From an uncultured Acidobacteriota bacterium (GTDB taxonomy: Bacteria > Acidobacteriota > Thermoanaerobaculia > Multivoradales > JAHEKO01): a DNA stretch of 50,586 nt. Position 1 is the first letter of the stretch. Each line of letters begins with the position of its first letter. The notes below the pieces were generated by a model. The model ran no database searches. It was not told the origin of the DNA and saw only the letters and a list, made by a program, of their open reading frames with translations. The stretch spans positions 1 to 50,586 of the forward strand of contig CAVQNG010000010.1 of assembly GCA_963713825.1 (NCBI GenBank). The letters run 5' to 3'. The position numbers and the translations under genes are program-made. Of the stretch, positions 13,821-32,872 are shown piece after piece.

Positions 13821-13938
13821 GCCTGCAGTCCAGCTCCGCGGTCCATGTGACCTATGCCGCACCTCCCTACCCCTATGGGTGGCGTGCGCCCGTGGGGCCT
13901 TTGCTACCGTTCGGTGGTCGCGCCGCAGAAGGACCCTT

Positions 13939-14886: not shown

Positions 14887-14953
14887 AGATCATCCAAGGT
14901 CGCCACTCCATGATTAGCCGCTCCAACGGTAGAGTCGAAGGATCGGAACGCTG

Positions 14954-16594
14954 ATGGCCCGAATGATCCCAGCTCAGATAGGACCGGAGGCACCTCCTTC
15001 TGAAGCTGAGATCTTTAGGCGCTTCCGAGACCACACACCTTCGTCTTGGACCGTAATTCACTCGCAGTGCTTCGTCGCAGGTGGCGACAAGGACCATCCA
15101 GCTCGTGATGGGGAGATCGACTTCCTACTTCTCGATCCGGAACGGGGCTTCGTAGCACTTGAGGTCAAGGGTGGCGGCATTCGATTCGAAAGCGGCCAGT
15201 GGTACTCAACGGGTCAAGATCAAGTCGAGAAAGCCATCAAGGATCCTGCTAGCCAGGCTCGGAAGGCCGCACACGAAGTGGATTCGTTCCTGAGGAAGCA
15301 GCCCTGGTTCAAAAAGAACAAGGTGCGGCTCCACTTCGGATGGGGTGTTGTCTTTCCCGATGTGGATATCCCGCTCAGAACTGGGATGGGACTACCGCGC
15401 GATCACATACTAGATCGGATGGACTGCACCAAGTTCTTGGAGAAGCTGGAATGCGTTGCGAAAGCTCAGGGTCTCCGAAAGAGAAAGTACCCTGACCAAC
15501 TAACCAGGGCATTTCTCAGTACCATCTGCCCAGGCTTTGATGCCCGGGTTCCACTTGCGAGGTGGTTCAGAGACGAGAAGGAGATCCTGGACCACTTCAC
15601 ACATGAGCAAATCAGCCTGCTTGATCACCTTGAAAAGGTCACACGCCTTGCTGTCGAGGGTGCTGCTGGCACCGGTAAGACGGTTGTGGCCATGGAGAAA
15701 GCACGAAGGCTCGCCGAAGCGGGCAAGGAGGTTCTGTTCCTCTGCTTCAACGAGCCGCTCGCTGATGACCTAGACAAGCGCGCAGAAGGATTCCAGGTCT
15801 TTCCGTATCAGCGATTCTGCATCCAATTCGCTCAGCGAGCAGGGCTAAAAGTGGAGGTTCCGGACGACAGCCGATTCAAACACCAGTTCTACGAGCATGA
15901 ACTCCCTCTGCTGATGATGGAAGCGCTAGAGAAGCTTCCCGACGCTCGATTCGACGCAATCATTGTGGACGAAGGGCAGGATTTCAAGCCTGACTGGTGG
16001 GTGAGTATTGAGGACTTGTTCCGGAACGCGAAAGAGGACATTTGGTACGTCTTCTTCGATCCCCATCAGGACATCTACAAGAGGGGAATTCCAGAGATGC
16101 TTGTCACCTATCCATTTCCGCTCCGATACAACGTCCGCAACACAGGGAGAATTGCAGAGTTCTGTGGGCAATTGTGTGGCTCTGAAATGGAACCATTCCC
16201 TGGAATTCCGGAGGGCCTCGACGTAGAACGAATTAGCGCGAACGGGCCCAAACACCTAGTCAAGATCCTTGAGAAGAGGATCGGTCAGCTGGTGAAAAAG
16301 GAGCGGATCGCGGCTCACGATATGGTCCTACTATCAACGAGGAGCAGAAAGGCTAGCGTGCTGAGAAAAGTGAAGAAGCTTGGTTCGCTGACACTTGTTC
16401 CTCTCGGCTCTTCCAAGGTCGGTCATCAACTTCGGTTCGATTCGATCTTCCGCTTCAAGGGATTGGAAGCCGACGTCGTGCTACTGGTGGACGAGGGCAA
16501 CCCAAGGACCAGTACACCTAGGCATCTCTACGTCGGCGCTTCGCGGGCCCGTCATCTGCTTGTTCTCATAGAGCTCGAAGGCGCTGCCAGCTAA
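14954..16594 (+). CDS. NERD nuclease/SF1 (UvrD-like) helicase fusion
   Basis: GEIDFLLL...LEVKGG; GAAGTGKT; DEGQDF; FKGLEADVV; YVGASRAR. Confidence 0.9.
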   Translation: MARMIPAQIGPEAPPSEAEIFRRFRDHTPSSWTVIHSQCFVAGGDKDHPARDGEIDFLLLDPERGFVALEVKGGGIRFESGQWYSTGQDQVEKAIKDPASQARKAAHEVDSFLRKQPWFKKNKVRLHFGWGVVFPDVDIPLRTGMGLPRDHILDRMDCTKFLEKLECVAKAQGLRKRKYPDQLTRAFLSTICPGFDARVPLARWFRDEKEILDHFTHEQISLLDHLEKVTRLAVEGAAGTGKTVVAMEKARRLAEAGKEVLFLCFNEPLADDLDKRAEGFQVFPYQRFCIQFAQRAGLKVEVPDDSRFKHQFYEHELPLLMMEALEKLPDARFDAIIVDEGQDFKPDWWVSIEDLFRNAKEDIWYVFFDPHQDIYKRGIPEMLVTYPFPLRYNVRNTGRIAEFCGQLCGSEMEPFPGIPEGLDVERISANGPKHLVKILEKRIGQLVKKERIAAHDMVLLSTRSRKASVLRKVKKLGSLTLVPLGSSKVGHQLRFDSIFRFKGLEADVVLLVDEGNPRTSTPRHLYVGASRARHLLVLIELEGAAS

Positions 16595-16627
16595 TCTCAC
16601 ACTTAGGCATACGCACTGCTGCAAAGC

Positions 16628-16661
16628 ACTGTCAAATCCTGACAGTAATTCCAAGTAGCGT
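16628..16661 (+). promoter_or_regulatory. Palindromic operator/promoter upstream of the ssp-like operon
   Basis: ACTGTCA-N5-TGACAGT; TGACAG-N10-TAGCGT. Confidence 0.65.
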
Positions 16662-16749
16662 TCCTGGCGTAGCTGACCCGCGTCTGCTAGACGCAACGCC
16701 GTGTTACACTTCGGGACAACCATAACGGCCTGTAACGGGCGGATGCGCC

Positions 16750-17001
16750 ATGGCGGAGAAGATAGAGGGCATCGATTACGTCTCTAGTACCGAGATGACT
16801 GCAGAGCTTGGAATCTCCAGGCAAACGCTCTGGCGCTGGAGGACGGAGGGCAAGATCCCCCCAGGTCACAAGTTTCGGGACGGCCGGGTGCTCTTCACTC
16901 TAGGTGAAGTCGAAGAAATCCGGCGATTCTCTACCCATATCGAGCCGCTACAAGGAGTCCGCCACAGGCAAATTGGGTTGTTCCGAGGTGAAAGCGAGTG
17001 A
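16750..17001 (+). CDS. AlpA/MerR-like HTH DNA-binding protein
   Basis: ELGISRQTLWRWRTEGKIP. Confidence 0.8.
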   Translation: MAEKIEGIDYVSSTEMTAELGISRQTLWRWRTEGKIPPGHKFRDGRVLFTLGEVEEIRRFSTHIEPLQGVRHRQIGLFRGESE

Positions 17002-17028
17002 AATGGCCCGAGAGCTTACACCAGAAGA

Positions 17029-18195
17029 ATGAAAGAGATCTACCTAGACAACAACGCGACCACCCACACTCTTCCCGAAGTGCAAGAGGCGGTGCTGGAT
17101 GCTATGGGCCGAGGGTTCGGAAATGCCTCCAGCGCCCACGCAGCAGGTGATCGGGCACGGAGGCAGCTGGACGTAGCCCGCGATTGCCTAGCGGGCCTTC
17201 TTGGTGCAGAAGGTGATCAGTTGATTTTCACTAGCGGAGGTACCGAAGCAAACAACAACGTCTTATTCTCTCTCCTTCTTGAATCGAATGGACCAAGACG
17301 CCTCATAACCTCGACGGTTGAGCACTCTTCGATCCTAAAGGCCGCCGAATGGCTGGAGGAAAAGGGTGTCCAAGTTACCTATCTGCCAGTCGACTCAAAA
17401 GGTCAGATCTCCCCGAGAAATCTAGAAGAGGCGTTGGGGCAGGCAGCAAACCTCGTGTCAATCCAATGGGTCAACAATGAAACTGGAGTGATTCAGCCGG
17501 TTGAAGAGTTTGCAAGGATCTGCTGTGAGAAGGGTGTGCCACTCCACTCAGATGCCGCTCAGGCTGTTGGGAAGATCCCGATCAACCTCTTCGATTCGGG
17601 AATTGGGTTTCTTTCCCTAACCGCCCACAAGCTTCACGGGCCCCAAGGAGTCGGAGCTCTGTACTCGAGAAACCCCCGGCAGCTCTCCCCTCTTCTCAGA
17701 GGCGGACCCCAGGAGCGGAAGCTGAGAGCAGGGACAGAGAACATTTCCGGAATAGCTGGCCTGGGCGCTGCAGCCAAGCTTCGATCCCAGAACCTTGAAC
17801 AAACGATTGAGCAGCTCAGCGGTTTGAGAGACGACTTCGAGAAGAGACTGCAAGAAGCTGTGCCCAACACATTAGTGAACGGAAATGAATCAAGTCGGGT
17901 CTGCAATTCAACGAACATCCAGTTCGAAGGGATCGATGGGCAAGCACTCGTTGTGCGACTCGATCAAGCTGGGATACGTTGCTCCCAGAGCTCTGCTTGC
18001 ACCAATCAACGCCCTGAGCCATCGTACGTCCTTCGCGCGATGGGGTTGACCGAAGAGCAAGCCTACTCAAGTGTGCGATTCAGCTTCTCTGTCGAGAATA
18101 CTCATGAGGAAATCGATCGCACGGTTACAGAGATTGCGGCCCTCTGCGCCCTACTGGGGCCGGTGTCGTCGTCAACAATGGCCGCACACTCATAG
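17029..18195 (+). CDS. sspA: Cysteine desulfurase (IscS family; SspA/DndA role)
   Basis: IYLDNNATT, FTSGGTEANN, HSDAAQ, AHKLHGPQG, SQSSAC, PSYVL; first enzyme of the DUF4007/ATPase/PAPS-reductase operon. Confidence 0.9.
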   Translation: MKEIYLDNNATTHTLPEVQEAVLDAMGRGFGNASSAHAAGDRARRQLDVARDCLAGLLGAEGDQLIFTSGGTEANNNVLFSLLLESNGPRRLITSTVEHSSILKAAEWLEEKGVQVTYLPVDSKGQISPRNLEEALGQAANLVSIQWVNNETGVIQPVEEFARICCEKGVPLHSDAAQAVGKIPINLFDSGIGFLSLTAHKLHGPQGVGALYSRNPRQLSPLLRGGPQERKLRAGTENISGIAGLGAAAKLRSQNLEQTIEQLSGLRDDFEKRLQEAVPNTLVNGNESSRVCNSTNIQFEGIDGQALVVRLDQAGIRCSQSSACTNQRPEPSYVLRAMGLTEEQAYSSVRFSFSVENTHEEIDRTVTEIAALCALLGPVSSSTMAAHS

Positions 18196-18211
18196 GGGAG
18201 AGTTGGGGATT

Positions 18212-19126
18212 ATGCGTTTCGGAGGACATGAGACCTTTGCCATTCGCGAAGGTTGGCTCCACAAGGGACTCAAGCTCCTTGTTGAAGAGCCACAGAGGCT
18301 AGTGGACGAGCACTCTGCTGACTGGCTCGGGGTGGGCAAGAATATGGCCAAGTCCATCCGCCACTGGCTCCACGCAACCGGCCTCTCTCAGCCTTCCGGC
18401 AAAGATGGGAGGAAGGTACTCTTCGAGGCCACAGACTTTGGAGGGTTGATCTACGAGGCTGACCCATATTTCATGGAACCCGGCACCTGGTGGGCGATTC
18501 ACGTCCACCTGGTCAGCAACCCCAACCAGGCAGCCAGTTGGTCGTGGTTCTTCAATGGTTTCAACCTGCCTCGATTCGAGCGGGCCACTTGCTTCGGGGC
18601 CCTCCAGAATCACCTGGAACTCACTCAACGTCGACCACCAAGCCTTCGGACCCTCCAACGAGACATTGCCTGCCTCCTAAACACCTATTCCAAAACAGTG
18701 CCCATCGAGGTCACCGACCCGGAAGAAGGCAAGATTTGCCCGCTAACCGAACTGGGATTGCTTCGCCACTTCCGAGTATCGGGCTTCTATCAAGTCAATC
18801 GAAACAGGAAGGACATTCCGTCTCACCTACTTGGCTACTGTGTCTCAAGAGATGAAGGGCTACGCTCCCTTGCAGCGACTACAAAGTCGATTGAGCTTAC
18901 ATTTCAACAGGCCGCCCATCAGCCAAATTCTCCAGGACGTGTATTCGCCTTGTCTACCGAGTCGCTATTTGACTATGTCGTGAGTATTGAGGCCCAAGAC
19001 GATAGCGACATTTCGATCTCAGGGCTGGCAGGTGACCGAATCCTGAAAGTCCGTTCGCGACCCCCTCTCGAATGGCTCACCGCCTACTTTGAAGTCGCCA
19101 TCGCTGGAGAACGCGATGCGGCGTGA
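18212..19126 (+). CDS. sspB: DUF4007 protein (SspB-like)
   Basis: MRFGGHETFAIREGWLHKG...LGVGKNMAKSIRHWL...DPYF...CPLTELGL. Confidence 0.85.
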   Translation: MRFGGHETFAIREGWLHKGLKLLVEEPQRLVDEHSADWLGVGKNMAKSIRHWLHATGLSQPSGKDGRKVLFEATDFGGLIYEADPYFMEPGTWWAIHVHLVSNPNQAASWSWFFNGFNLPRFERATCFGALQNHLELTQRRPPSLRTLQRDIACLLNTYSKTVPIEVTDPEEGKICPLTELGLLRHFRVSGFYQVNRNRKDIPSHLLGYCVSRDEGLRSLAATTKSIELTFQQAAHQPNSPGRVFALSTESLFDYVVSIEAQDDSDISISGLAGDRILKVRSRPPLEWLTAYFEVAIAGERDAA

Positions 19127-22100
19127 AGTCCGCGAGACAAGAGGAACCTCCTCACCTCTGGAAGCGCAGGCCTTCCTGCGCTCGATCAATCTTCGCTACG
19201 ACGCAAAACATGCAGATCGAATAGGGCACTTCCAGCCTACAGCCAAGACAGTTGGCTTGGTTCGGCAACTCTTGGGAGAGGACTCATCCGAGAGAGCCCT
19301 TCTAGTAGTCGCCCCCTACGGTTCCGGGAAGTCATTAGCTGCGTCCTATGTGTTGCAGCTGACTGAGAACAGAATAGACGCAGAAAATTCACTCGTGGCA
19401 ATAGAGCAGAGGCTGAAGCCTGTAAGTCCAGACCTGGCGAAGTTCGCTAGAAGGCGACGAACTAAGAGGGGCGCAGGGTTCGTCCTCGCCTTGCATGGGT
19501 ATCAACCATCCATCGGAGAGGCACTTAAAGGGGCTGCCTCCGACAGCATGCGCCGTCAGAAGCAGGGTCGAAGGGCTAGAACAATTGAGGGTTTGCCGAC
19601 CGGGACCCCCGACGAGGTAGTCCACCTCCTGTCGGTACTGCAAAAGAAGGCTACAGATGCGGGGCGAGACCGCATTGTCATTCTTTGGGACGAGTTTGGA
19701 AGGCACCTAGAGGGGCTACTGGCCGACGGACGCGCCAGTGAACTTCTTCTAATTCAGCAACTCGCCGAGTTTGCCAGCCGGACCAGCAACCAAGTCCCCA
19801 TCACCTTGGGCCTTCTACTTCACCGAAACCTTCTGAACTACGCAGCAAGTTTGCCGCACTCCGTTCGGTCGGAGTGGAAGAAAATCGAGGGACGATTCCA
19901 CACGATTCAATACGTTGACGACAGCAAAGAGATCCATCGGTTGATCACGGAAATCCTCTCGTCAAGGTTCCGAAACGGCCAGGCTCCTCGACCCAAGGGC
20001 TTTTCGAGTCTTGCGAGGAGGGCGCGACAGCTTGGACTCTTCTCTGACTACTCGGAAAAGGAGTTGACCGATCTACTTGCCAAGGGTTACCCAATTGAGC
20101 CGACAACTCTTCATCTTCTCCCTCGACTATCGGCCCGGGTAGCACAGAACGAAAGAACACTCTTCAGCTTTCTTTTTGGGGTTGACCCCGACCGAGCTAT
20201 TACACCCTCAGTTCTATACGACTACTTTTCCAGCGAAATGCAGTCCGATTCCACTGTTGGAGGCACATACAAACAGTGGCTCGAGACGCAGAGTGCGATC
20301 TCGAAAACCGCCGATGACCCGAAGGCGGTTGCCGCCCTGAAGACAGCCTGCCTGCTCGGCCTCGGCTTGAGTGGAGAAAGATCCAGAGCGGGCAAGAATC
20401 ACCTGCTCTTTGCTCTTGGCGGCCTCGAGGCCACCTCCAGTGGTGAGGTGGTGGTGGAAAGCCTGATTGACAAGAAACTCCTGCTACACCGCCAACATAG
20501 TGATGAGGTTGCAGTTTGGCACGGTACCGATCTCGATCTTCGCGGCCGGCTTCAAGAAGAAGAGCATCGACTCAAAGAGCATTTCGAGATCATTGATTTC
20601 TTGACCCGAGAAGTCCCTCCACCGACCTGGAAGCCTCTGAGATACAACGACCAGTTCCACGTTCGCAGATACGCCACTTCAACGTACATCTCTCTGGGTG
20701 AGTTGAAGCGCAACCTGCAACTTGAGTCGCACAACCATGTGACGCCGCCGGGCTGCGACGCGAGAGTCCTGTACTTGGTGCCAACCTCTCCGGTGGAACT
20801 AGAGGAAGCCGAGTCGGTCATTCGAGATGGACTCAAGAACAATCGTCTTCTGGTAGCGATTCCACGAGGGGAGCTGAATCTGTTCGGAGCAGCGCTCGAG
20901 GTTGCTGCGATCCAACACATGCAGGTCGATTCAGAGTTGCTCGAGTCTGACCCGCTTGCTGCAGCTGAACTTCAGCAAATGAGCGACGACAGTCGTGATC
21001 ACCTGGACAGAATGGCGGAAGGCCTTACGAACCCCTCCGATACGGGTTGTCGGTGGTTCTACCAGGGCAACGAGTTGACCATACACTCGCCAAAGGCACT
21101 TCGTGGTCAGCTATCAGAGGTGATGGAGCAGGTATTTCCGAGCAGTCCCAAAATCCGCAACGAGATGATCGTTCGGCGAAACCCGTCAGCTATCTTGGTG
21201 AATGCTCGCAAGAAGCTCCTGCTTGGAATACTCGACCGGACAGGTGAGGAGAATCTAGGGATCATCGGGAACTTCCCTGATGCATCGATGTTCCGCACTG
21301 TGCTTTTCAACACCGGCATCTATAGGCAGTCAACCAATGGCCTCTGGGGCTACTCAATGCCGGAGTGCATTGAGGACGAAGGGTTGCAGGCCGTCTGGCA
21401 GGAGATCAGAGACTTCCTCTCTCTTCCAAACGAGCAATTCAAGAAATTCGAAGATCTCTTCGACAGACTTGCGAGCCCCCCCTTCGGAGTGCGCGCAGGG
21501 GTCCTTCCTATTCTCCTCGCCGCCGGGCTAAAGGCCTTCCCCTCAGCAACTACTCTCTTGCGAGGTGGAGAGTACGTGCCAGATATTCTTCCCTCAGTCA
21601 TCGAGCACCTCTGCAAGCACCCTCAGAGCTATAACCTGAAGGTCCTTGATCTTGATACATCCACCAAGTCATACCTTGGAGAGGTGAGCAAGATCCTAGG
21701 AGAGGGATCCGATGTTGAAACCTACGAATCGGATCTACTCAGAAGGGCTTTCGAAGCTTGGGAAAGCTGGAAAGCAACATTGCCTGTAGGTGCGCGAACC
21801 ACCCGCCTTATTTCAGAGCGAACCAGGAAGCTCCAGGATCTACTTGGTCGCCGACTAGAGCCAGCTGAGCTGTTCTTGGCAAGGTTTCCGGATGCGATGG
21901 GTTGTGACGGCAGCAGTGACCCGACACTAACCAAGAAAATCAAGATGTCGCTGCACGAACTAGAAACTATTGCTGATCAGTATGCCGCCGCCGCCTCGAC
22001 GACTCTAAAGAGAAAGCTCGGCATGGGCGAGGCTTCGGAGAAGGACTCTGCCAGGAGAGTAGCTGAGACATGGGCAGACCTCTTCCCCACCGATCTTGCG

Positions 22101-22466
22101 CCTATGCTTCCCGACCCATCGGCAAGAGCTCTCATGAATCTAAGCATGAGACCATACCGCTCAGACAGCCAACTTGTGAATGCTCTTTCCAGCGTATTAA
22201 TTGCCAAACCTCTGAGTGCTTGGGACGACAGGTCTCTTCTAGATTTCGAACAACAGCTCAATGCTGCGGTTCAAGGAATCGAAGACCACGCCCTCACGAT
22301 GGTATTGGAAGGACCGCAAGCAACAAGGCAAGAAGCACGATCTGCATTGGGGAATATCTTGAAGAGGCGAATTGCCCGATCCTTTGGTATCTTGGGTGAG
22401 ATCCTTGGCGAATCTGAGGCCAGGACCTTCATTCAATCACTCGACGACCACCCGTCAGAGGACTAG
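19116..22466 (+). CDS. sspC: Large P-loop ATPase (SspC/BrxC-like)
   Basis: APYGSGKS, ILWDEFGRHLE, QNERTLFSFL, PPFGVRAG; lies between DUF4007 and the PAPS reductase. Confidence 0.8.
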   Translation: MRREVRETRGTSSPLEAQAFLRSINLRYDAKHADRIGHFQPTAKTVGLVRQLLGEDSSERALLVVAPYGSGKSLAASYVLQLTENRIDAENSLVAIEQRLKPVSPDLAKFARRRRTKRGAGFVLALHGYQPSIGEALKGAASDSMRRQKQGRRARTIEGLPTGTPDEVVHLLSVLQKKATDAGRDRIVILWDEFGRHLEGLLADGRASELLLIQQLAEFASRTSNQVPITLGLLLHRNLLNYAASLPHSVRSEWKKIEGRFHTIQYVDDSKEIHRLITEILSSRFRNGQAPRPKGFSSLARRARQLGLFSDYSEKELTDLLAKGYPIEPTTLHLLPRLSARVAQNERTLFSFLFGVDPDRAITPSVLYDYFSSEMQSDSTVGGTYKQWLETQSAISKTADDPKAVAALKTACLLGLGLSGERSRAGKNHLLFALGGLEATSSGEVVVESLIDKKLLLHRQHSDEVAVWHGTDLDLRGRLQEEEHRLKEHFEIIDFLTREVPPPTWKPLRYNDQFHVRRYATSTYISLGELKRNLQLESHNHVTPPGCDARVLYLVPTSPVELEEAESVIRDGLKNNRLLVAIPRGELNLFGAALEVAAIQHMQVDSELLESDPLAAAELQQMSDDSRDHLDRMAEGLTNPSDTGCRWFYQGNELTIHSPKALRGQLSEVMEQVFPSSPKIRNEMIVRRNPSAILVNARKKLLLGILDRTGEENLGIIGNFPDASMFRTVLFNTGIYRQSTNGLWGYSMPECIEDEGLQAVWQEIRDFLSLPNEQFKKFEDLFDRLASPPFGVRAGVLPILLAAGLKAFPSATTLLRGGEYVPDILPSVIEHLCKHPQSYNLKVLDLDTSTKSYLGEVSKILGEGSDVETYESDLLRRAFEAWESWKATLPVGARTTRLISERTRKLQDLLGRRLEPAELFLARFPDAMGCDGSSDPTLTKKIKMSLHELETIADQYAAAASTTLKRKLGMGEASEKDSARRVAETWADLFPTDLAPMLPDPSARALMNLSMRPYRSDSQLVNALSSVLIAKPLSAWDDRSLLDFEQQLNAAVQGIEDHALTMVLEGPQATRQEARSALGNILKRRIARSFGILGEILGESEARTFIQSLDDHPSED

Positions 22467-22469
22467 TTC

Positions 22470-23288
22470 ATGGCATCACTCCAAGAAGCCCTCAATTCGG
22501 TGGGCGACGTCTCGATACGGCATATCGTCAGCCTGTCCGGTGGTAAGGACTCAGCGGCGCTTGCCGTCTACATGCAGGACAAGTACCCACAGATTTCTTC
22601 GGAGTATGTCTTCTGCGACACCGGGGCAGAGTTGGAAGAGACCTATGAGTATCTCGAACGACTTGAGGCAGTCCTGGGAGCCCCGATCAAGCGCCTTTCA
22701 GCGCTGGACCTTCCGAAAGTCGCAGCCATCAAGAAGCCTGGGAGGTCTGCTTTCGACATCGTACTCAATGAGATATACGGCGGTTATTTGCCCAACCCTC
22801 GGGCCCGCTGGTGCACACGGATTCTCAAGATCGAGCCGTTCGAGCACTATGTCGGAAGCGATAGGGCTTTCAGCTATATCGGAATACGCGGTGACGAGGA
22901 TAGAGACGGGTACTCTTCGAAAAAGCCCCCAGTCCTGTCACAGCGCCCCAACGTCCTTCCTGTCTATCCATTCAAAGACGATGGGATCGGCCTCTCAGAC
23001 GTAAGGATCTTGTTGGAGAACTCTGGCCTAGGCCTTCCAAGCTACTACCGCTGGAGGTCTCGATCAGGCTGTTACTTCTGCTTTTATCAGCAGATGGGAG
23101 AATGGCAGCGCCTCAAGGATAACCACCCAGATCTTTTTCAGTCCGCAAAGACCTATGAGAAGGAGTCCGGCGAACACCGATTCACCTGGATCGAACGTCG
23201 ATCCCTGTCTGAACTCGAGAAGATCGAAAAACGGTATCCACTCCCAGTGGTCGACGAAGCTGATGGCTGCGCAATATGTCACCTGTAG
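22470..23288 (+). CDS. sspD: PAPS-reductase family protein (SspD/DndC-like)
   Basis: PP-loop SLSGGKDS, FCDTG, RWCT, RSRSGCYFCFYQ, C-terminal CAICHL. Confidence 0.85.
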   Translation: MASLQEALNSVGDVSIRHIVSLSGGKDSAALAVYMQDKYPQISSEYVFCDTGAELEETYEYLERLEAVLGAPIKRLSALDLPKVAAIKKPGRSAFDIVLNEIYGGYLPNPRARWCTRILKIEPFEHYVGSDRAFSYIGIRGDEDRDGYSSKKPPVLSQRPNVLPVYPFKDDGIGLSDVRILLENSGLGLPSYYRWRSRSGCYFCFYQQMGEWQRLKDNHPDLFQSAKTYEKESGEHRFTWIERRSLSELEKIEKRYPLPVVDEADGCAICHL

Positions 23289-23328
23289 AGCTGAAAAGGA
23301 CGTTCTAATCTGAGCCGGACGTCTACTG

Positions 23329-23961
23329 ATGAACAATCCTGAACTCAAGACAAAGTGGCACCAAGTGCTGGGAGCTGACCTCGAGGACGCTTTTGACAGA
23401 GGGGAGGGCCTAGAGGAACTAATCCCCGCTTGCCAGGCGATCTATGTGTGGAGGAGGAGCTTCCGGCCTCCCACTGGAGTTACGAGGAGCCCGGCCCAGT
23501 TCGCTGAGTGGATCGAGAGGAACAACTCGATCCCCTTTGCTCTTATTCAAGATAAGGAGCTCACCCATTTCGCTCGCTTGACTGAGCTAGTTCTAGGTGG
23601 CGGGGGATTAACTCCTGATAAGACCGAGACTCTTGGAGAATTTCTAAGGACTGAGAAGAGAAGGCGCTGGATGGCTAGATTCATGCGATCACTCCGTGAA
23701 TTTGCACCACCACTTTATGTCGGAGAAACTCACGACCTTCAGCGCCGTGCAAGAGATCACCTCAAAGGGGAGACCAACCTTGGCAACGCCCTCTCTGAGG
23801 GCCTTGGCCTAACATGGGCCGATTTGGAGCTGCTCTACTGGAACTTGGGCTCAAGGAAGACGACTGATCAGGACAGCGCCTCACTCAAATCGCAACGCAC
23901 CCTTTTCGAGATGATCACTACAAGATCGACAGTGGCTGGATTCGTAATTCGATCTGGATAA
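23329..23961 (+). CDS. GIY-YIG-like nuclease
   Basis: AIYVW ... LYVGETHDLQRRARDH ... late conserved Glu; widely spaced motif halves. Confidence 0.6.
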   Translation: MNNPELKTKWHQVLGADLEDAFDRGEGLEELIPACQAIYVWRRSFRPPTGVTRSPAQFAEWIERNNSIPFALIQDKELTHFARLTELVLGGGGLTPDKTETLGEFLRTEKRRRWMARFMRSLREFAPPLYVGETHDLQRRARDHLKGETNLGNALSEGLGLTWADLELLYWNLGSRKTTDQDSASLKSQRTLFEMITTRSTVAGFVIRSG

Positions 23962-23979
23962 TCTGCAGGAGTGTCCATA

Positions 23980-26042
23980 ATGCCAACGCCATCAGCGTCA
24001 ATTGGAGTGCCAACCACACCCAGTTTCGACTTTCTCTTCGGAAAGTTTGACCTTCTCGGTTTGGACGATTCCGTATTTCTCGACAACGATGAGTCTGAAA
24101 CAGGCAGCAACGTACCTGAGACTCGTGAACGAGCTTGCTGGCGCTGAGAATCGATCGTGGCGGCTAGAAGAGCTGTTTCAGCGAGACCTGAACTGGCCGA
24201 GAGTAGAACGCCAGATTGTTCCATACCTCAATACAGTCGAACGCCCTCAGTTCTTCAACTCTTTGACTGTCGCTTTGCTGCCACAAAAGGGGAACGAGTT
24301 GCAGCCAAGCTTCGACGAGGATGGCTGGGCCCCTCCGGAAGTACCTGCCGTGAAGTACGGAAAGAACTTTCCCATAGGGCCAATTCTCTGCAGCTACTGG
24401 GAGGATTGGAGTCACGTGTCCGAACCTCAAGCCAAGCTCGGGCAAGTTCGTTGGAACCCAGATGAGGTTTTTAGCGTTGCCATAGATGGTCAACATCGCC
24501 TTGCTGCGATCCAAAGATTCGCAGAGACATCGGGTAACGAAGAGGGATTAACGCAGACTCATGTGCCGATAATCCTGCTAATACTCGATGAGCGCCTTGG
24601 ATATCGGAGTCCCACTGGTCAGTCGGTCATCGAGGTTCTTCGCACTCTCTTCATAGACCTAAATAAACACTCAGAGAAGGTTAGCCGAGCAAGACAGATT
24701 CTGCTCGACGATAGAGACCCTCATTCACTTTGTGTAAGGGCTCTTGTTGGTGAGGAACTCAAGGATGGATCGGATGAACTGCTTTGCGAACCTTCTAGTT
24801 TACCCTTGAATCTCATCGACTGGCATACGGAACAAGCTCGGTTCGACGATGGCCCATACATTTCCACGATCCTCGGCTTGGACTGGCTTGTTGCTCAAGC
24901 TCTTGGAAGCAAGCCGATTAGGGACTACATGGACTACAGTCAAATCAGGCGCCAGATTAGGTCGTTCCGCAAATCGCTGGGGGTTTCACTGAGTGAAGCT
25001 GAAAAACGACTCAAAGAGCTCGAAGAGCTTGAATGGAGGCCTTTTAGCTATCGGGGAGAATCGAATGAAAACGAGCTGAAGGTAATTCAGAAGGCCTTTT
25101 CGGAAGTGTGGGCTCCGGGAATCGTGCGGATTCTCACCACGTTCCTGCCCTATAGGACGCTAATTGCGGAACGAAAAACCAGCGGTTCCCTGACTAGCGA
25201 GTTCGTTAGCTGGTTCTACCTCTTCACAAGAAAGGAAGAGGAGAAGTTCGGTGGAGAGGCAACCGAAGAGTACAAGAGGATTCTCGGCCGACTTGCGAAT
25301 CGAGACATCCCGCTATCAGAGAATCAGATGGACTTCAAACTCGAACGAGCTGAGGGTGTGAAATCTGAGAACCTCGCGTTCAACGTTGTGTTTCAAAGGG
25401 CGCTATTCCTGGCATTCATCGAGTTCCTCAAGATCGACTCCGACCATTTGGAAGAGCTCGCACCTGAAGACGATGACGACGGGATCCTCGATGAGATCGA
25501 AGAGTATGAAGATGATGATGACACCGAGGAAGACCTCGATAATACCCTTTGGTCAACTGTCGGCGGCAAGGCCTCGCTCAACTACGAGAGGGCTGAGCAG
25601 TTTGTTGAGGCACTGAACCGGGTTGTAGAACACCGCCCTGAATTTCTTGATAAAGATTGCCCTTTCGATCGAGAAGACGGCAATGAAGATCCACTCTGGG
25701 CAGGGATGCTACGTTCCTCGGAGGGGCCGATTGATTTCACGCTAGGAGCCTCCAGACGATCGAAGGAGCCGATCTACTGGGCAGCGGTCTGCTGATCTAT
25801 GTTCCGACAGCGGCGACGAAGCGATGGAAAGTGAATTCGACGACTTCTGGGCGCAAGTTAGAGAAAGTGACAAACTGCTTCACAAGAAACTCCGTAGATC
25901 GATAGATAGGTTCTTTACCCACTCGGAGAGTTCTTCAGCGGCACGTATTCTTGCAGGTACTGGGAGAGAGTACTCTCAGGAACTTGCGGAAGATGAAGCA
26001 AGAGATCGACTGAGGTGGGTGTTTGAGGCAATCAGGGCGTAG
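23980..26042 (+). CDS. DGQHR/DndB-family (ParB-like) protein; frameshifts near 24050 and 25790
   Basis: LFQRDL, FFNSLTVAL, IDGQHR, LFIDLNK; AGGAG then ATG 23980; ORFs 24002..25795 and 25824..26042 join across a shift. Confidence 0.8.
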
Positions 26043-26113
26043 CTAGAACCTGACGTAGGTGTTGCACGCCCAGTCACTTCGCTGGGCTCTGCCATGAGTC
26101 CTGCATTCAACAA

Positions 26114-27495
26114 ATGCCTCCAAGAAGATCTGCCACGGATCACGACCGGTTTCTTAAAGGCCCTCTATCCAGGAGCAGCTTGAGCTCTGAGCAAGCGAGA
26201 GAGGACTACAGGTCCAGAAGAACTAAGCAGGGGAAGGTCAGCACTCAGCCATCAGATTCTGCGGACAGCTCTACGCTCCCGGCCGCTGTAGACCTTAAGC
26301 ACCCTGGGACAGGCTTCTTGTTCAAGTATCAAAGAGAGCTCGTCGATGTTGCTCTCGAGCTCCTCTCAGGAAAGCTCCCCAAGAAAGCCGGATTAATGGC
26401 TCTGCCTACAGGAGGAGGAAAGACCCGCACCGCTTCCTGGTCTGTGCTTGAAGGATTGAGAGCTGAACTCATTTCAAGTGTTCTCTGGACAGCTCCAACC
26501 CGAGAGCTGCTCGACCAGGCATTCGAGACCTTTCTAGAGCTGTGGGCGTTTTCCCAGCTGTTGATCAACTTCGAATAGAAAGGTGCTATGTCTCTCGAAA
26601 AATAGAAAGACATCCGTTCGCATCTGTCTACTTTGCCACCCCACAGATGATCGCCAGCCGATTGAGGAGCAAGAGAGGTTCCGCCTCCTGGCCGGAAATC
26701 GACCTCGTCGTCTTCGATGAGGCCCACCACGCATCTGCACCGCAGTTCATGGAAGCAATCAAGGCTGTGAGAGCATCAAAACAAGGATCCAGGGCAGTCA
26801 TGCTTGGGCTCTCCGCAACTCCTGGCCGGTCCCAAGAGGCCGAAACGGAGGGACTCGTAGCTCTGTTTCGGCGCCAACTAATCGTAAGCAAGCAACTGGG
26901 AAAGAGGCCCGTCGAAGCGCTGCAAGACCTCGGAGTGCTTGCAAGATTGGACTTCGAGAGGATCGAGCTTGAAAGGTCCTGGCCCGGCACGGTGATGGAG
27001 CATGCCAGTCAACGCCGCCTTCCTATTAGTGAACTTGAAACAAATGTATATCGTTTCGATGCCGCTGTGAGAGCAATACTGAAAGTCGGTTCTACCGACC
27101 GCGTATTGGTCTTCACTGGCAGCATCGATCATGCCGAAGCTCTGGGTGCAGTTCTTCGGTCGCACGGCTTGAAGGCGGAGGCGATTTCGTCACGAACGGG
27201 ATTGGATGAGCGAGACAGGATCCTGCGCAGTTTCCAGGCAGGAAAGATCCATGTCCTGCTGAACAAGAAACTCCTCGCTACGGGATACGACTGCCCTGCC
27301 GTGCGCCACGCTTTTCTAACAGTACCTATTGGGTCCGCCATACTCTTCGAACAAATAGTGGGGAGAGCTTCAAGGGGGCCTGCTGTTGGGGGAAACCCAC
27401 GCGGGACTATCTGGGAGATTGACAACAATCTTAGAATCAATGGCTACCCATCCTCATACTACAGATTCCGAGATTTTGACTGGCTTTCGGCATAA
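26114..27495 (+). CDS. SF2 DEAD/DEAH (ResIII-like) helicase; frameshift near 26560
   Basis: LPTGGGKT in ORF 26114..26578; DEAHH, GLSATP, LATGYDCP and QIVGRASR in ORF 26542..27495. Confidence 0.85.
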
Positions 27496-27568
27496 TCAAG
27501 CCATTTGAGCTTGGAAGCAAGGGGAGACACAGGTCATCGCCAAGCAGCGAGCAGCCAGCATTCAGCGA

Positions 27569-29001
27569 GTGAAGACCGCAATTAGGCGGTCTTCACTATC
27601 AAAACCAATACGAGCTGCTCTCGAATTGAATCTACTCTCGCAGGAACGCTCGGTCTTGGATTTCGGTTGTGGCAGAGGCGACGACGTCAAGGCTCTCCGA
27701 GCTCTCGGATATTCATGTGTTGGGTGGGATCCGGCCTACCCCGTAGAAGATGATCCGCAGCCTGCGGATATTGTAAATTTAGGATACGTTCTAAACGTAA
27801 TCGAGAACCCAGCAGAGCGGGAGGAGTCTTGCTCCGCGCTTGGGCGTTGGCCCGGAAGCTGCTGATAGTCGCGGTTAGAACAACTCTGGAACTCAAGAAG
27901 CAAGTTCTTTCGCCATATAGCGACGGCTTTCTGACCTCGACGGGCACATTTCAGAAGTTCTATTCACCAGGCGAGCTTGGACAATGGATTGAAAGCCGGC
28001 TGGGGCCCAACCTTGGCTCGCCAGCGGCCCCTGGTGTCTTTCTCGCATTCAAGGACAAAAGAGAGCGGCAGAGGTTCCTAGCGTCTCAGTTTAGGCGCAA
28101 GAGAGGACCTTCTCGTCGAGAGATAGAGAAGGCGGTATTTGAGCACCACAAGACCTTGCTTGAGCCCCTAATGCTCTTTGTTCAGGCGCGCGGCCGGCTT
28201 CCTGGTCCCAAGGAGATCCCTGAATCGATCAAGATTCAGAACATCTTTGGCTCAGTGGCAAGAGCCTTCTCAGCCGTGACGGCAGCTACTGGCCCCGAGA
28301 TTTGGGGACAGATTCGCGACGAGCGGATTGTTGACCTCGTCGTATATCTGGCACTTGACCGATTCGGTGGCCGCCCGCGGCTCTCTGACCTAGCGCCCGA
28401 GCTACAGTTAGACATTAGGGCACTGTTTAGCTCATACAAGCGAGCTTGCCAAATAGCCGACGAGGCCCTCTTTGCCGCAGGGAAGACATCGGCAATTGAT
28501 GCTGCATGCCGGCAAGCAACCCATGGAAAGATCACGCTAGAGGCTTTGTATGTGCACTCAGAGTCAATCGAGGAGCTTCCGCCAATCCTGCGGATCTACG
28601 AAGGGTGTGCTCGCGTTCTCGTTGGGAGTGTCGAAGGAGCGAATGTTCTGAAACTGAACAGAGTGAAGCCACGAGTCTCCTATCTCTCCTACAGGGACTT
28701 CGATCGCGACCCTCACCCACAGCTCCAAGGTTCCCTTGTCGTCGACCTTCGGAAGCTGGACCTCAACTACTGGGATTACACCGATTCAGAGAATCCATTC
28801 ATTCTGCATAGGAAGGACTTACTCGTCCCTGATAGCTATCCTTTGAAGAAGAGATTCGAACGCCTAACTCGTCAAGAAGAAAGGCGTGGGCTGTATGACT
28901 CTGGCACTCCAATTGGTACGGCTAAGGATTGGAGTGAGCTCCTCCGGAGTAAGGGGCTACAGCAACGAGGGCATCAGATTGTCAGGCTTTCGGGCCAATA
29001 G
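27569..29001 (+). CDS. DNA phosphorothioation-associated putative methyltransferase; frameshift near 27830
   Basis: KTAIRRSSLSKPI, LDFGCGRGDD, VNLGYVLNVIE, TGTFQKFY, LRIYEGCA, NPFILHRKD. Confidence 0.85.
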
Positions 29002-29046
29002 ATGTGCTACTCCGGACACTGAGCAATTAGTTGGGAAGCACAGCCG

Positions 29047-29496
29047 ATGAAAATATACATTGCCTCCCATTCGCGAGAGAACGCTCTGGAACTTGCTGAA
29101 AAGCTCAATGAGCGGGGACATACCGTCACTTCTCGCTGGATCTGGCTCGACACCAAGTTCCACATGGGGATGCGAGCCTACTCTGCCTCCGAGCGCTCAG
29201 ACCTTGCGACGATGGATGAAGAAGATGTAAGAGCAGCAGTTGATGGCGTGGTGGTGATTGCGGAACCTGAGGGCCGAATGGTGCCAGGCGGAAAGCACGT
29301 TGAATCGGGAATTGCCCTCGGCCTAGGACGATCATTGTGCGTGATCGGGCGACGAGAGAATGTCTTCCATTGGCACCCGAAGGTCAGGGTGTTTCGCGAT
29401 TCGGGGGAGTATCTGCGTCATCTGGTAGAGCTTCAGAAGACTCAGGATTCCGACTTGAATCAGGGATTGGAGCGGCCGGAATCCGCGCCTGACTGA
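29047..29496 (+). CDS. Nucleoside 2-deoxyribosyltransferase-like protein
   Basis: MKIYIAS...DEEDVRAA...GGKHVESGIALGLG...ENVFHW pattern. Confidence 0.7.
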   Translation: MKIYIASHSRENALELAEKLNERGHTVTSRWIWLDTKFHMGMRAYSASERSDLATMDEEDVRAAVDGVVVIAEPEGRMVPGGKHVESGIALGLGRSLCVIGRRENVFHWHPKVRVFRDSGEYLRHLVELQKTQDSDLNQGLERPESAPD

Positions 29497-30144
29497 GTAT
29501 GGGCTCACCCAGAGGGGCTTGTAAGACTTCAACCTCCCCGTTGGTTACCTCTGACCTGCCTTGATTGCACTTCAAAGACACTGTGCACGAAAGTACGATG
29601 CCTGCGATGAAACCCAGCAGGGCTGTGCCTTGGATCATCACTCGAATCCAGATCCACACCTTCGTCGCGCAATGAAGCCCTCGTCCCAGACCCCTCAGCG
29701 AGCGCTCAAGGTCTGGGTCGATTCTTGCCAGGCCGATTTGCTCCTTGAGCTCTCCCCCACCGACCACACGTGATCCCCATCGGGGAAGATGTACCGACGC
29801 TCCATGGTCTCTAGAACTCTGTTCGCCCTCTTGACAAAGGCCAACATTCGGTAGTCGAAGACTACAAACGCAAGGGTGGTTACAATACCGAAGGCGCACA
29901 GGCTAATGGCCAACGAGACTAGGCACTCTCTGAGCGCAACCGCATACCCACCTGCAAGCACTCCGACCAGAACGACGAAGTAGTTGAGAAAGAGCATCCT
30001 CTGCCGGGCTGCGGACTCGAAGTACTTCCAAGCGTAGTCGAGCTTGATCTCCAGAAGCCGATAGGGGTCCCCGCATGAACCCGAACTAGACCGGGCAGGG
30101 TCATCAGGTTTCTGCGAATCATGCAATCTTAAGCCTCCTCCCAA
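29384..30144 (-). CDS. Membrane protein (2-3 TM); frameshift near 29755
   Basis: DYAWKYFESAARQRMLFLNYFVVL plus two hydrophobic helices; third helix in ORF 29384..29899; start uncertain. Confidence 0.55.
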
Positions 30145-30220
30145 GCCACCGCACCTTCGTACCTGTATGTGGTCAGCGCTCCAAGCCTCAACCGTGTTCC
30201 TTCTCGGTTAGTGTCAAGCT

Positions 30221-31713
30221 TTAGCCAATCACCAGCGTTTCCTCAGGCAGCAACTTGATTACTCTCTCTTGAGGGACTTCAAGCATCGCCTCGATGCTGG
30301 ACCATCCCTCATCCAGAAGAATCCGGTTCCGTTCGTTGCGTGCCTCAATATTGAACCGACGGCGGTTGATCAGAGTCATCCTAGTCAGGGCGGCCATGCA
30401 GGCTGTGAGTTGAGGAAGGTTGAGCACCAGTGGATTGCCCACTACGATGACACGACCAACGTTCACGGCTGCCACCGTGGCATGCGCAACTGCTTGAAGT
30501 TCGGCGAGTTTCAGCCCGGGCACTCGAGAGCTTCCTACCTCTTGGCCTGCTACCTCCTTGCCTAGCCAATTGGGGAACGAATAGCGAATATGGTAGTAGA
30601 GCCATATTGCGAGTTGTGTAGTAGCGGGCGTCACGCTTTGACCGAGAACGTGCCGCAAATTGTAGCCACCGAACTCAGAGCCCGGCCTGCCCTTGCCACT
30701 CGGGCTCCAAGGGCTGTTGCCGTAGTACATCTCGCGGACAAAGGTCCTCAACTTTCGGCTAGGAAGCTCCTGCAACCAAGTAGCGCCGGGAACTGGGAGG
30801 CTAGTTTTTGTAAACAGGTCTGACACAACATGCAAAAGGTACTCTACGGCCGCAGTAGACCAATCGCCCCGAGGAGTGTAGGGAGTTCCACTAGCTGCAA
30901 GGGTCCGGATTTCCATCACGGCCTTCCCGTTTACATATCTTGTGCCAATGAACTGGCCGGTCTTTATCTGATGGATGCCACTCATGAACCTCAGCAGATC
31001 GTGACCGGAAGAGAGAATGCGGTGATAGACCCAACCGTGCCCGTCACCCACTCCGAATCCGGGCCCCCTGTGGTCGATTGGAAGTCCGCTGTGGGTCACC
31101 TTCATTCCCGATAGGTGACGGACCCAGTCGAATCGCTGCGCGAGGGCGCTCTTGCCGAGACTATGCTGGAACTCCCTGAAGGCTCGGTATATCCCAGACT
31201 CGTCATGGAGCTGTCCCCCATAACTCAGTAGCTTCCTGGAAAGCGGATTGCCAAGCGGCGCACAGAACCAATCTGTCAAGATACCAATCAGCGCCGAGGC
31301 AAATACAAACGAATAGTCCAGTCCATCCCACGGTTCGCGGGCCAGAGGGGAATCGAATCTGCTGTCAATTACCGCGATTTCTTCCGGTGTCAGGAGAGTA
31401 TCCAGCGAGACCTCGCATTCACCGGAGGGGTACGATTGAACGAGATCTTCCCACCGCATCTCGCTGCCCAACCTGCCCATTGCTCGCTTTGTTGCTGGCT
31501 CATCAGCAGGCTCAGGTCTTGCGCTCCCAGTAGGCCTCTCGGCGGCTCCAGTTTCCTCAAGGAGATTGGCTAGTTTCTCACTCTCTGCTCGACATCTTTC
31601 TTCTGAAGGAGAACCACGTCCTCTTCAATGTTGCTCAGGGTCCTGTCCTGCCCCGCCAGGACAGCGGCGATTTCCTTCAGAGGCTTTGCGGGCCCATCTG
31701 ACTTGTCACTCAT
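30221..31713 (-). CDS. Hypothetical protein (HRxxSxGHD...HxxSD...LPxPG motifs); frameshift near 31590
   Basis: ORF 30221..31480 plus an upstream segment MSDKSDGPAKPLKEIAAVL from ATG 31713, which overlaps the previous stop. Confidence 0.7.
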
Positions 31714-32248
31714 CGGCTAGCCGGACAGCTCGCAGCTGATACCGCTCCGCCTCGAGCATCTTGTTGAGCCTACAAACCACCTCTTCCAGTTGATCGATCT
31801 TTGTTTCGTTGGCATCCTGTCTCAGTCGCTCCTCCTCCAGATGAACCTGCAGATCGCGAATCCGCATTTCTTGCCCTTCGATTATCCGTTGTGCTTTGGC
31901 AATGTCCTTGTCAACATTGAGAGCAGTCTCGAATTGCTGAGCAGAGTCACGAAAGAAGTTTGCGAGCGAACCCATTCCCAGTCCCCCCAGCAGGGCCCCC
32001 GCACTAGCCAAAGCGGTCGTCACGAGCGATGCGCCTGCTGCCATTCCCCCGCCGCCGGCAGCAATCGCTCCACCTCCCAGGGCAGCTAGGCCCGCACTGG
32101 TTGCAGCAGCACCCGAGAGTCCCAAGAAATGGGTCCCCACAAAGGTCCCTACCACTGGCGCCAGCGCTCCAGCGGATATGATGCAGAGTCCGCCTCCGAT
32201 GGCAGTACCTCCTGCCACTATCGCGATTTTCTTCTTCGACCAGGCCAT
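31706..32248 (-). CDS. Glycine-zipper membrane protein with C-terminal coiled coil
   Basis: GLSGAAATSAGLAALGGGAIAAGGGGMAAG; heptad-rich tail; coupled to the TerB gene. Confidence 0.8.
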   Translation of the reverse strand: MAWSKKKIAIVAGGTAIGGGLCIISAGALAPVVGTFVGTHFLGLSGAAATSAGLAALGGGAIAAGGGGMAAGASLVTTALASAGALLGGLGMGSLANFFRDSAQQFETALNVDKDIAKAQRIIEGQEMRIRDLQVHLEEERLRQDANETKIDQLEEVVCRLNKMLEAERYQLRAVRLADE

Positions 32249-32682: not shown

Positions 32683-32843
32683 CGGTCTCTCCTTTGCAGG
32701 ACCCTCTTGGATCGCCCACTTCCCATCCTTGTTCTGAGCAACCTAGACACAACAAGCACCTCCCAGCGCTGCTGAACCACCAACCCCATGAACGAGGGAC
32801 TCCAAAGCCAAATTAGAGAGCTAGCACTGAACGGCTAGCTGCG

Positions 32844-32872
32844 AAACTAGTTTTGACCCTCGGACCTGTCAA
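32844..32872 (-). promoter_or_regulatory. Sigma70 promoter for the TerB operon
   Basis: TTGACA-17 bp-TAGTTT on the minus strand. Confidence 0.55.

Follow-up and report, generated by a model that had tools for sequence, protein, structure and literature searches.

Four types of effector are known from the defence systems that are based on phosphorothioate (PT) modification of DNA, namely DndFGH, PbeABCD, SspE and SspFGH. The last two accompany SspABCD, which writes single-strand PT at C-ps-CA sites. Here we describe a stretch of 50,586 nucleotides from an uncultured Acidobacteriota bacterium (contig CAVQNG010000010.1; the whole stretch is called the window below), in which the sspABCD genes are followed by a trio of genes that recurs beside sspD in other genomes. 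The trio encodes a divergent GIY-YIG-like protein of 210 amino acids (aa), referred to as g210, a large protein with a DGQHR domain of the ParB fold, and a superfamily 2 (SF2) helicase of the DEAH type. We propose, with some confidence, that these three proteins form an effector module that is associated with Ssp and has so far not been named.

Several properties of the described systems are relevant to this proposal. According to PMC9646914, the N-terminal DUF262 fold of SspE carries a DGQQR motif that is essential for PT-stimulated GTP hydrolysis, and the C-terminal HNH domain nicks DNA. SspE has been treated as the equivalent of DndB (PMC10853773), and a DndB-like protein is reported to bind both ATP and GTP (bioRxiv 10.1101/2025.10.10.680097). 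The DUF262 and DGQHR domains are described as related ParB/Srx folds, with QR, DGQHR and FxxxN as the defining motifs of the DGQHR domain (PMC4619093). For SspFGH, PMC8092258 reports a Walker A motif in SspF and an FtsK-like C-terminus in SspH as the only homologies that could be detected. The same paper counts 2,211 of 2,678 sspBCD modules without sspE or sspFGH, and its authors expected further partners.

An SspABCD operon and the conserved genes 3' of sspD

By its sequence, the modification module of the window is a standard and apparently intact SspABCD. The four ssp genes are contiguous, co-oriented and uninterrupted (17029-23288, + strand), and their products give near-full-length matches to the PADLOC models of SspA, SspB, SspC and SspD (Table 1), which bears out the SspABCD core claimed in an earlier reading of this DNA (the original prediction). 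A P-loop, GSGKS, is readable in the translation of SspC, a protein that matched no Pfam family, and the translation of SspD displays an SGGKDS PP-loop and C-terminal Cys pairs. The open reading frame (ORF) of sspB opens at 18071, and the profile match starts at residue 48 of this ORF. All ten genes that the prediction had listed are found on the + strand where it had placed them.

None of the PADLOC models of SspE, SspFGH, DndFGH and PbeB-D matched the genes downstream of sspD (PADLOC-DB, 2023 release; E<=0.01 throughout), and a known Ssp, Pbe or Dnd effector was ruled out on these grounds. Similarly, SspF, SspG and SspH, for which PADLOC v2 presumably contains models, had no match among 15 proteins of the window and 21 proteins of other loci. 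No model of SspE, PglZ or BrxL matched the proteins scanned across 4084-42503, and the window thus holds, as had been predicted, no canonical SspE or SspFGH. The trio begins 40 bp after the stop codon of sspD, and similarly tight spacing is seen in other loci. A promoter and terminator scan of 14500-31800 returned fewer sites than were present in shuffled sequence and was therefore not informative.

In order to follow these genes in other genomes, genome contigs were scanned with a profile of the DGQHR protein alignment, which gave 78 loci; all window proteins were then located in these loci by tblastn and g210 by a hidden Markov model (HMM), and the arrangements were counted with a script. 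In 24 loci, the DGQHR relative has an identity of 38% or more. Of this close group, 22 loci have g210 adjacent and 23 have the DEAH helicase downstream; sspD occurs in 22, and in 20 of these it is upstream on the same strand at less than 6 kb. Among the full 78, the corresponding counts are 53 for an adjacent g210, 33 for a downstream helicase, 65 for sspD at any position and 58 for sspD upstream on the same strand within this distance. The ssp genes are downstream of the trio in L001 and L018. By their labels, the loci of the close group come from at least five phyla, in both metagenome-assembled genomes (MAGs) and isolates, and the record titles of the 78 loci name Acidobacteriota/Vicinamibacterales, Actinomycetota (Mycobacterium, Rhodococcus, Acidimicrobiia), Planctomycetota, Pseudomonadota (Alphaproteobacteria), Poribacteria and Desulfobacterota. 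Hence, g210, the DGQHR protein and the helicase constitute a conserved module.

The original prediction had been made dependent on the conservation of the downstream genes next to sspD in other genomes. This conservation is found, but only for three of the five genes that were then proposed as the effector set. The methyltransferase gene, which belongs to TIGR04096 in spite of being broken, is present in 10 of the 24 close loci and in 16 of the 78, at varying positions, and is therefore a variable accessory. That PT is combined with methylation, which the original prediction put forward as possible, is speculative. The gene for the 149-aa protein has no homologue in any of the 78 loci (tblastn) and was ruled out as a member of the system. 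This protein has no Pfam match at E<=10, PF05014 included; a language-model feature search related it to nucleoside 2-deoxyribosyltransferases with a score of 0.93 and 199 of 256 features shared, 19 of its 30 matches being in the PF05014 set, which we regard as a lead only. At the other end of the operon, homologues of the helix-turn-helix (HTH) regulator lie directly 5' of sspA in five of the 78 loci (L032, L035, L036, L057 and L061; tblastn), and these are the loci with the SspABCD nearest to that of the window.

The smallest protein of the trio, g210, is the only one with an intact gene in the window. Residues Y39, W41, Y130, G132, R140, H144 and E194 are invariant in 28 sequences. Its AlphaFold2 (AF2) model, with a mean predicted local distance difference test (pLDDT) value of 91.7, consists of a strand at residues 35-43, an insert of ~85 residues, a second strand at 128-134, helices at 137-146 and 151-159, a strand at 166-175 and a helix at 180-201. 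In this model, the order of the secondary structure elements fits the GIY-YIG fold, and Tyr, Tyr, Arg and Glu are at the expected places. The Foldseek matches with a probability >0.3 (root-mean-square deviation ~3.4-4.1 Å) were solely UvrC GIY-YIG domains and a phage GIY-YIG protein, the best UvrC domain having a probability of 0.69, a TM(target) of 0.57 and an E value of 0.6. Alignment of the g210 family by hhalign with the Pfam-positive GIY-YIG protein of locus L061 gave a probability of 82.9% and an E value of 9.3e-6. A profile search put the family at 883 representative clusters with E<=1e-3, of which 482 reach 1e-10 and 170 reach 1e-30; the best 150 of the 883 are mostly stand-alone proteins of ~200 aa, and the only name that the sources give to the family is 'hypothetical protein'. 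A single-sequence word-index search recovered g210 itself and nothing else.

The DGQHR protein has 476 relatives at E<=1e-3 among 8,000 candidates scored. The best 120 of these 476 are 43-52% identical and, where a name is given, are called 'hypothetical protein' and, in one case, 'DndB'. Homologues are typically 680-708 aa long. The QR (Q31 R32), DGQHR (D133-R137) and FxxxN (F188...N192) motifs are invariant in the family alignment and in two further alignments. When an intact member was modelled (pLDDT 86, predicted template modelling score 0.84), the chain began with an alpha/beta part and continued with a helical middle region and an acidic, disordered linker at residues 505-543, the C-terminal part being again helical. 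A phage collar protein that came up as a match to the family in the Protein Data Bank (PDB) was rejected, its E value of 0.16 being at chance level.

The helicase has a plain SF2 core, in which the GGGKT and DEAH motifs are visible. The PADLOC matches of the two window pieces are limited to the helicase core of PbeA, type IV restriction enzymes and DpdF. An intact orthologue (L003:12003-13322) contains ResIII (3e-20) and Helicase_C, and no nuclease domain was found in it.

Prediction of a complex between the DGQHR protein and g210 of the same locus, L003, gave a median interface score (ipSAE) of 0.47 (0.47, 0.56 and 0.00 in the three runs), whereas the best of three controls scored 0.00. Of 157 solved complexes, 116 reach the mark used for this score, as do 2 of 215 mismatched pairs; values at or under 0.60 comprise only 18 of the 157 solved complexes and both of the mismatches that passed. 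The contacts of the runs agree in at least 0%, and the pLDDT of the partner is at least 75. These models provide weak support for g210 as a binding partner of the DGQHR protein.

In the more distant loci, sspD is still followed by the small protein and by a ~600-aa DGQHR-like protein, and the remainder is exchanged. L045 and L054 contain an additional DndB-like protein of ~450 aa, which in L054 is joined by a SNF2 helicase (ZorD/DpdE models, 1e-55 to 1e-73). The insertion in L061 comprises a canonical GIY-YIG protein of 148 aa (Pfam 27.1 bits, cutoff 22.6), a DndB-like protein, a SNF2 helicase and a TIGR04096 methyltransferase; ORFs of similar sizes and order occur in L051 and L057, judged by size and order only. 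The Poribacteria-type loci L025 and L031 have an additional HATPase_c_3 (MORC-like) protein of ~815 aa. The variant modules lie at ~11.7-14.3 kb in L025 and L031 and at ~11.7-15.3 kb in L045, L054 and L061. The SspABCD of L061 is the nearest to that of the window (59-74% identity; SspD 74%), yet its effector set is different. The modification and effector modules have therefore been shuffled relative to each other.

Table 1. Genes and gene remnants of the PT-related part of the window
Feature	Position	Strand	Evidence
Candidate PbeD, 151 aa	8119-8574	-	position only
PbeC, 711 aa	8581-10716	-	PADLOC PbeC 4.4e-60, 202.2 bits
PbeB-like ORF, 74 aa	10720-10944	-	position only
PbeA, 728 aa	10929-13115	-	PADLOC PbeA 2.7e-169, 562.9 bits, profile positions 9-667/672
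PbeABCD-like operon (CxC ABC ATPase/DndE-type) as a whole, intact, four tightly packed ORFs	8119-13115	-	PADLOC, ORFs
Second sspD, remnant of the C-terminal half, frameshifted, directly upstream of PbeA	13197-13588	-	tblastn; PADLOC SspD 2.3e-9
Transposase-like fragment beside sspD remnant	13706-13846	-	
HTH_17 regulator, 83 aa, upstream of sspA	16750-17001	+	Pfam HTH_17 3e-8; PADLOC mad1 5.3e-9
sspA, cysteine desulfurase, intact	17029-18195	+	Aminotran_5 1.9e-73; PADLOC SspA 1.4e-128, DndA 2.8e-127
sspB (DUF4007), intact	18212-19126	+	DUF4007 1.3e-64; PADLOC SspB 1.6e-107, profile positions 1-291/293
sspC, 1125-aa ATPase related to BrxC, intact	19089-22466	+	PADLOC SspC 1.7e-165, positions 4-1049/1054; BrxC 8.1e-78
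sspD, phosphoadenosine phosphosulfate (PAPS) reductase-type PP-loop enzyme, intact	22470-23288	+	PADLOC SspD 3.3e-91; PAPS_reduct 1.6e-8
g210, 210-aa divergent GIY-YIG-like protein, first of trio, intact	23329-23961	+	Pfam GIY-YIG E 0.006, 17.3 bits (cutoff 22.6)
Large DGQHR/ParB-fold protein gene, broken	24002-26042	+	Pfam DndB 47.6 bits (cutoff 29.1); TIGR03187 53.1 (cutoff 58.85)
SF2 DEAH helicase gene, ~435 aa when intact, broken	26114-27495	+	ResIII/DEAD in N-terminal piece; Helicase_C 2.9e-14 in C-terminal piece
TIGR04096 ('DNA phosphorothioation-associated putative methyltransferase') gene, broken	27569-29001	+	NCBIfam TIGR04096
149-aa protein, possibly nucleoside 2-deoxyribosyltransferase-like	29047-29496	+	language-model feature search only

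Relation to described systems

Among the closest described systems is SspABCD-SspE of Vibrio cyclitrophicus FF75, E. coli 3234/A and Streptomyces. The modification module is the same, SspA to SspD being full-length here, and sspD is likewise followed by a partner of the ParB superfamily with a DGQ[Q/H]R signature, which reads DGQHR in the window and DGQQR in SspE. Unlike SspE, the window protein has no DUF262 domain above the cutoff (GmrSD_N 21.4 bits, cutoff 33.2), and DUF1524/HNH is absent from it as well as from the intact L003 homologue, the C-terminal half being all-helical in the model. Where SspE is a single gene, there are three genes here, with the candidate nuclease, which is GIY-YIG-like, and the SF2 helicase encoded separately. 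A three-gene effector set 3' of sspBCD is also found in SspABCD-SspFGH of Vibrio anguillarum FF-93, but its domain content differs from that of the trio.

The original prediction spoke of an Ssp/Dnd hybrid, which overstates the relationship. The DGQHR protein does share its domain, with the QR, DGQHR and FxxxN motifs, with DndB, and the Pfam DndB score is over the cutoff. However, the Pfam match covers just profile positions 86-176 of 338, the protein is ~700 rather than ~350 aa long, and it travels with ssp and not with dnd. With the DndB model TIGR03233 it scores 21.4 bits, where the cutoff is 328; it is therefore no DndB orthologue, and this identity was ruled out. By sequence it is a distinct family of ~700 aa, which has just the ParB-like domain in common with DndB.

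In its core, the trio helicase is like the SF2 portion of PbeA, as in PbeABCD/TIGR04095 'dnd_restrict_1' (E 1.9e-15 for the window piece and 2e-19 for the intact L003 protein), and the PT-associated context is also similar. The helicase lacks the HKD/PLD nuclease domain of PbeA/TIGR04095 (TIGR04095 38.4 bits, cutoff 600), and, in contrast to PbeABCD, neither a CxC ATPase nor a DndE protein accompanies the trio. Dpd, the 7-deazaguanine system, in which the ParB-like protein DpdB occurs with the DpdE and DpdF helicases, offers another parallel, for it too combines a DNA-modification module with a DndB-like ParB-fold protein and SF2/SNF2 helicases; in variant Ssp loci, a DndB-like protein is accompanied by a helicase that matches the DpdE models at 1e-55. 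Dpd differs in its modification chemistry, DpdA and DpdC genes are absent here, and the match of the trio helicase to DpdF is weak (2.3e-10).

A search of full-text literature, of which subscription journals and supplementary tables were no part, yielded no description of the trio, including in the available portions of PMC8092258, PMC10853773, PMC12839542 and PMC12914056. Hence, the SspABCD core is known, whereas the candidate effector set that is attached here to PT-based defence appears to be new, and its copy in the window looks decayed.

Putative function of the trio

By analogy with SspE, we regard it as rather probable that the trio is a conserved PT effector module, a functional analogue of SspE made of three proteins, which probably replaces SspE as the anti-phage effector. 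From the observed gene identities, synteny, conserved motifs and frameshifts, we infer a course of action that includes PT dependence and physical association of the three proteins. In this scheme, SspABCD would mark the DNA of the host as self. The DGQHR protein would then read the PT status through a nucleoside triphosphatase (NTPase) domain of the ParB fold, as the DUF262 domain of SspE does with its DGQQR motif; this role is proposed because of the kinship between SspE DUF262 and DGQHR domains and the nucleotide binding of a DndB-like protein. The SF2 helicase would supply translocation or unwinding, and the GIY-YIG protein would nick or cut the DNA of the invader, with the TIGR04096 methyltransferase as an optional accessory. 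Either an attack on unmodified DNA, as by SspFGH, or a PT-triggered response, as by SspE, would be compatible with the sequence, which does not tell the two modes apart.

Leaning slightly towards doubt, we also consider a wider idea, in which the trio would represent a new class of PT-dependent restriction effectors spread over several phyla, a 'split SspE' that would divide sensing, motor and cutting functions among three proteins. The pair of the small protein and the DGQHR protein would be its portable core, able to recruit different motors, namely the DEAH helicase, a DndB-like protein with a SNF2 helicase, or a MORC-like ATPase, and the class would account for a part of the ~84% of sspBCD modules that have no known partner.

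A number of points weigh against an effector function of the trio, which is deduced from sequences and models. The DGQHR family profile gave no solved structure that could be counted at E<=1 among PDB sequences, SspE included, and a whole-chain Foldseek comparison of the 707-aa DGQHR model with the PDB gave none at E<=1e-3; because no fold in the PDB was matched, the likeness to SspE consists of the motifs and of superfamily membership at the level of Pfam. Foldseek also found nothing for g210 at E<=1e-3 in the PDB and BFVD, its Pfam GIY-YIG score is under the cutoff (Table 1), and the predicted complex of g210 with the DGQHR protein scored zero in one of three runs. Of the 59 loci matched by the g210 HMM, 27 had contributed sequences to it, the other 32 being independent. 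Two loci of the close group have no ssp genes in the available DNA: L013, which has no g210 either, and L014, in which the contig ends directly 3' of the helicase. The trio can thus be separated from ssp, or else the ssp genes are off-contig. Furthermore, DndB itself is a regulator and not an effector, and the broken copy in the window says nothing about activity in this organism.

The role of DndB, the best-known DGQHR protein, as a regulator of PT modification (PMC4507180, PMC12839542) leads to a different assignment, in which the trio would be an accessory of modification: the DGQHR protein would control the level or the site choice of PT in the manner of DndB, and the helicase and a nickase would aid SspBCD in reaching or processing DNA. 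The trio does lie in the same operon direction as sspBCD. However, SspABCD alone is reported to be the modification machinery and SspE to be dispensable for PT (PMC12914056); the trio is present in a subset of the ssp loci and is swapped for other nuclease and helicase sets while SspABCD remains similar, as in L061; and in the window it has decayed next to intact sspABCD genes, as would be the case for a dispensable or costly effector. We therefore consider an accessory of modification quite unlikely. Still less probable, in our judgement, is a defence system that stands beside ssp in islands without any dependence on PT. Such independence would explain why L013 and L014 have the DGQHR and helicase genes (L014 also g210) without ssp, and would be in keeping with a window that is, taken altogether, a defence island. 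Against it stand the 58 of 78 loci, from several phyla, with sspD closely upstream on the same strand and intergenic gaps near zero, an arrangement tighter than loose co-location; in addition, the L014 contig is truncated right after the helicase, and L001 and L018 demonstrate that ssp can be located downstream of the trio. An effector role remains our preferred assignment.

Probable decay of the trio, and the neighbouring Pbe-like operon

Intact homologues from L003, L005 and L006 served as tblastn queries to locate the frame changes in the window. The DGQHR gene runs in frame 2 to the stop at 25793-25795 and has the C-terminal 72 aa in frame 3 at 25824-26042, the change from frame 2 to frame 3 being between 25783 and 25830. 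The original prediction had overlooked this break: the 72-aa ORF aligns with the C-terminus of the DGQHR homologues. The helicase gene consists of ORFs 26114-26578 and 26542-27495, with a change from frame 2 to frame 1 between 26575 and 26599, and the methyltransferase gene of the pieces 27569-27865 and 27829-29001, with a change from frame 2 to frame 1 between 27805 and 27838. The two methyltransferase pieces cover positions 6-91 (125.2 bits) and 93-477 (387 bits) of the 478-position TIGR04096 profile, for which the cutoff is 150. No long homopolymer is present at any of the three junctions. Nine other window ORFs of at least 500 aa (~21 kb) are uninterrupted, several of them with full-length profile matches. 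By contrast, the three breaks are all inside the 5 kb of 24002-29001, for which the chance is, by a rough estimate, ~(5/26)^3 or ~0.007. The clustered breaks look like real decay, which is favoured by their confinement to 5 kb and by the continuity of the other long ORFs. Because the DGQHR and helicase genes, and also the methyltransferase gene, are frameshifted, the trio effector is probably inactive in this genome. A GC3 (G+C at third codon positions) frame plot of 42.6-48.7 kb, made for further frameshifts in the flank, was unfortunately too noisy to read.

Loci L035 and L036, the nearest relatives of the window SspABCD with the same trio, have nearly all of their genes fragmented (SspC is split into three ORFs in L035). 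They look like error-rich long-read assemblies and call for caution when frameshifts are judged in such records.

Upstream of the Ssp operon, just outside the part of the window that the original prediction dealt with and absent from it, are an intact PbeABCD-like operon and the remnant of a second sspD (8119-13588; Table 1). No model matched the 74-aa and 151-aa ORFs of this operon, and their PbeB and PbeD roles are assigned because of their position, following the description of Pbe in PMC10853773. The sspD remnant is 47.8% identical to residues 142-210 of the window SspD in frame -3 and 42.5% identical to residues 200-272 in frame -2. Together with the Pbe genes, it suggests a former ssp-pbe cassette that has lost its modification genes. 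Pbe-like genes are also present in the ssp-bearing loci L052, L054, L056 and L061.

Two other explanations have to be considered for this arrangement. The three frameshifts could be errors of sequencing or assembly, in which case the organism itself would carry an unbroken trio and methyltransferase. The record is of the metagenome type and exactly as long as the window, and two related loci from long-read MAGs, L035 and L036, give an idea, through their fragmented genes, of what such records can look like. On the other hand, the junctions are outside long homopolymers, the breaks keep to one segment while ~21 kb of other long ORFs are spared, and the island contains further real decay in the form of the truncated and frameshifted sspD remnant and the transposase fragment; errors are for these reasons an unlikely cause. 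The other explanation accepts the decay and takes the trio for a dead relic, so that the working PT-linked effector at this site would be the PbeABCD-like operon, using the marks made by SspABCD. Its four ORFs are intact and tightly packed, PbeA and PbeC are recognized with the E values of Table 1, PbeA is directly preceded on its own (-) strand by the sspD remnant, and in L052 the order is sspD, PbeA, PbeC on one strand. PbeABCD is also reported, as cited in PMC10853773, as a PT-dependent partner of DndCDEA. The same article, however, argues that CxC/Pbe systems are often independent of PT modules, and the pairing of Ssp with Pbe is limited to 4 of the 78 loci, which were picked by their DGQHR protein and not by Pbe. 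We find this explanation doubtful, and continue to regard the trio as the probable effector that belongs to Ssp, in a copy that has probably decayed here. One may speculate that the intact SspABCD serves the neighbouring Pbe-like operon while the trio decays.

Both operons are part of a region from 6 to 38 kb that is packed with defence-type genes and has ~55% G+C, compared with ~63% in the flanks (1-6000 and 38000-50586). A scan of the window for transfer RNA (tRNA) genes found none, and the island hence has no boundary defined by a tRNA; no integrase was seen in the window. Two paralogous HTH-WYL-WCX regulators (4831-5871 and 13777-14883, both +), 85-90% identical as proteins, bracket the Pbe cassette as a direct repeat, and each heads one half of the island. 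The start of the gene that follows the first of them (5855-8122, +) overlaps its end; this gene encodes a 755-aa protein with RNA polymerase alpha-CTD-like and sigma-70 region 4 domains and with weak PglW/MzaA matches. At 14954-16594 (+) there is a 546-aa protein with NERD and UvrD-like helicase domains, which matches the PADLOC model 'RTasNERD-Hel' (3.8e-55), a model associated with defence-associated reverse transcriptases (DRT); no reverse transcriptase was seen near it. On the other side of the trio, 30221-37605 (-/+) contains further candidate defence genes, namely those for a BnzB-like protein (1e-9), a PDC-M09A match (9e-15) beside a TerB-domain protein, a 634-aa HD_4 and AAA_33/zeta-like protein, and a PD-(D/E)XK protein.

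In summary, the window presents the probable decay of a candidate effector whose modification genes have been kept, beside a second PT-associated effector, and it is informative on the exchange and loss of such systems. If our reading of the trio is true, a conserved partner module would fill a part of the gap that is left by the partnerless sspBCD modules of PMC8092258. It would also amount to a natural experiment in splitting the sensing of PT from the cutting of DNA, and would give the ParB/DGQHR NTPase fold and GIY-YIG nucleases a new use in immunity.

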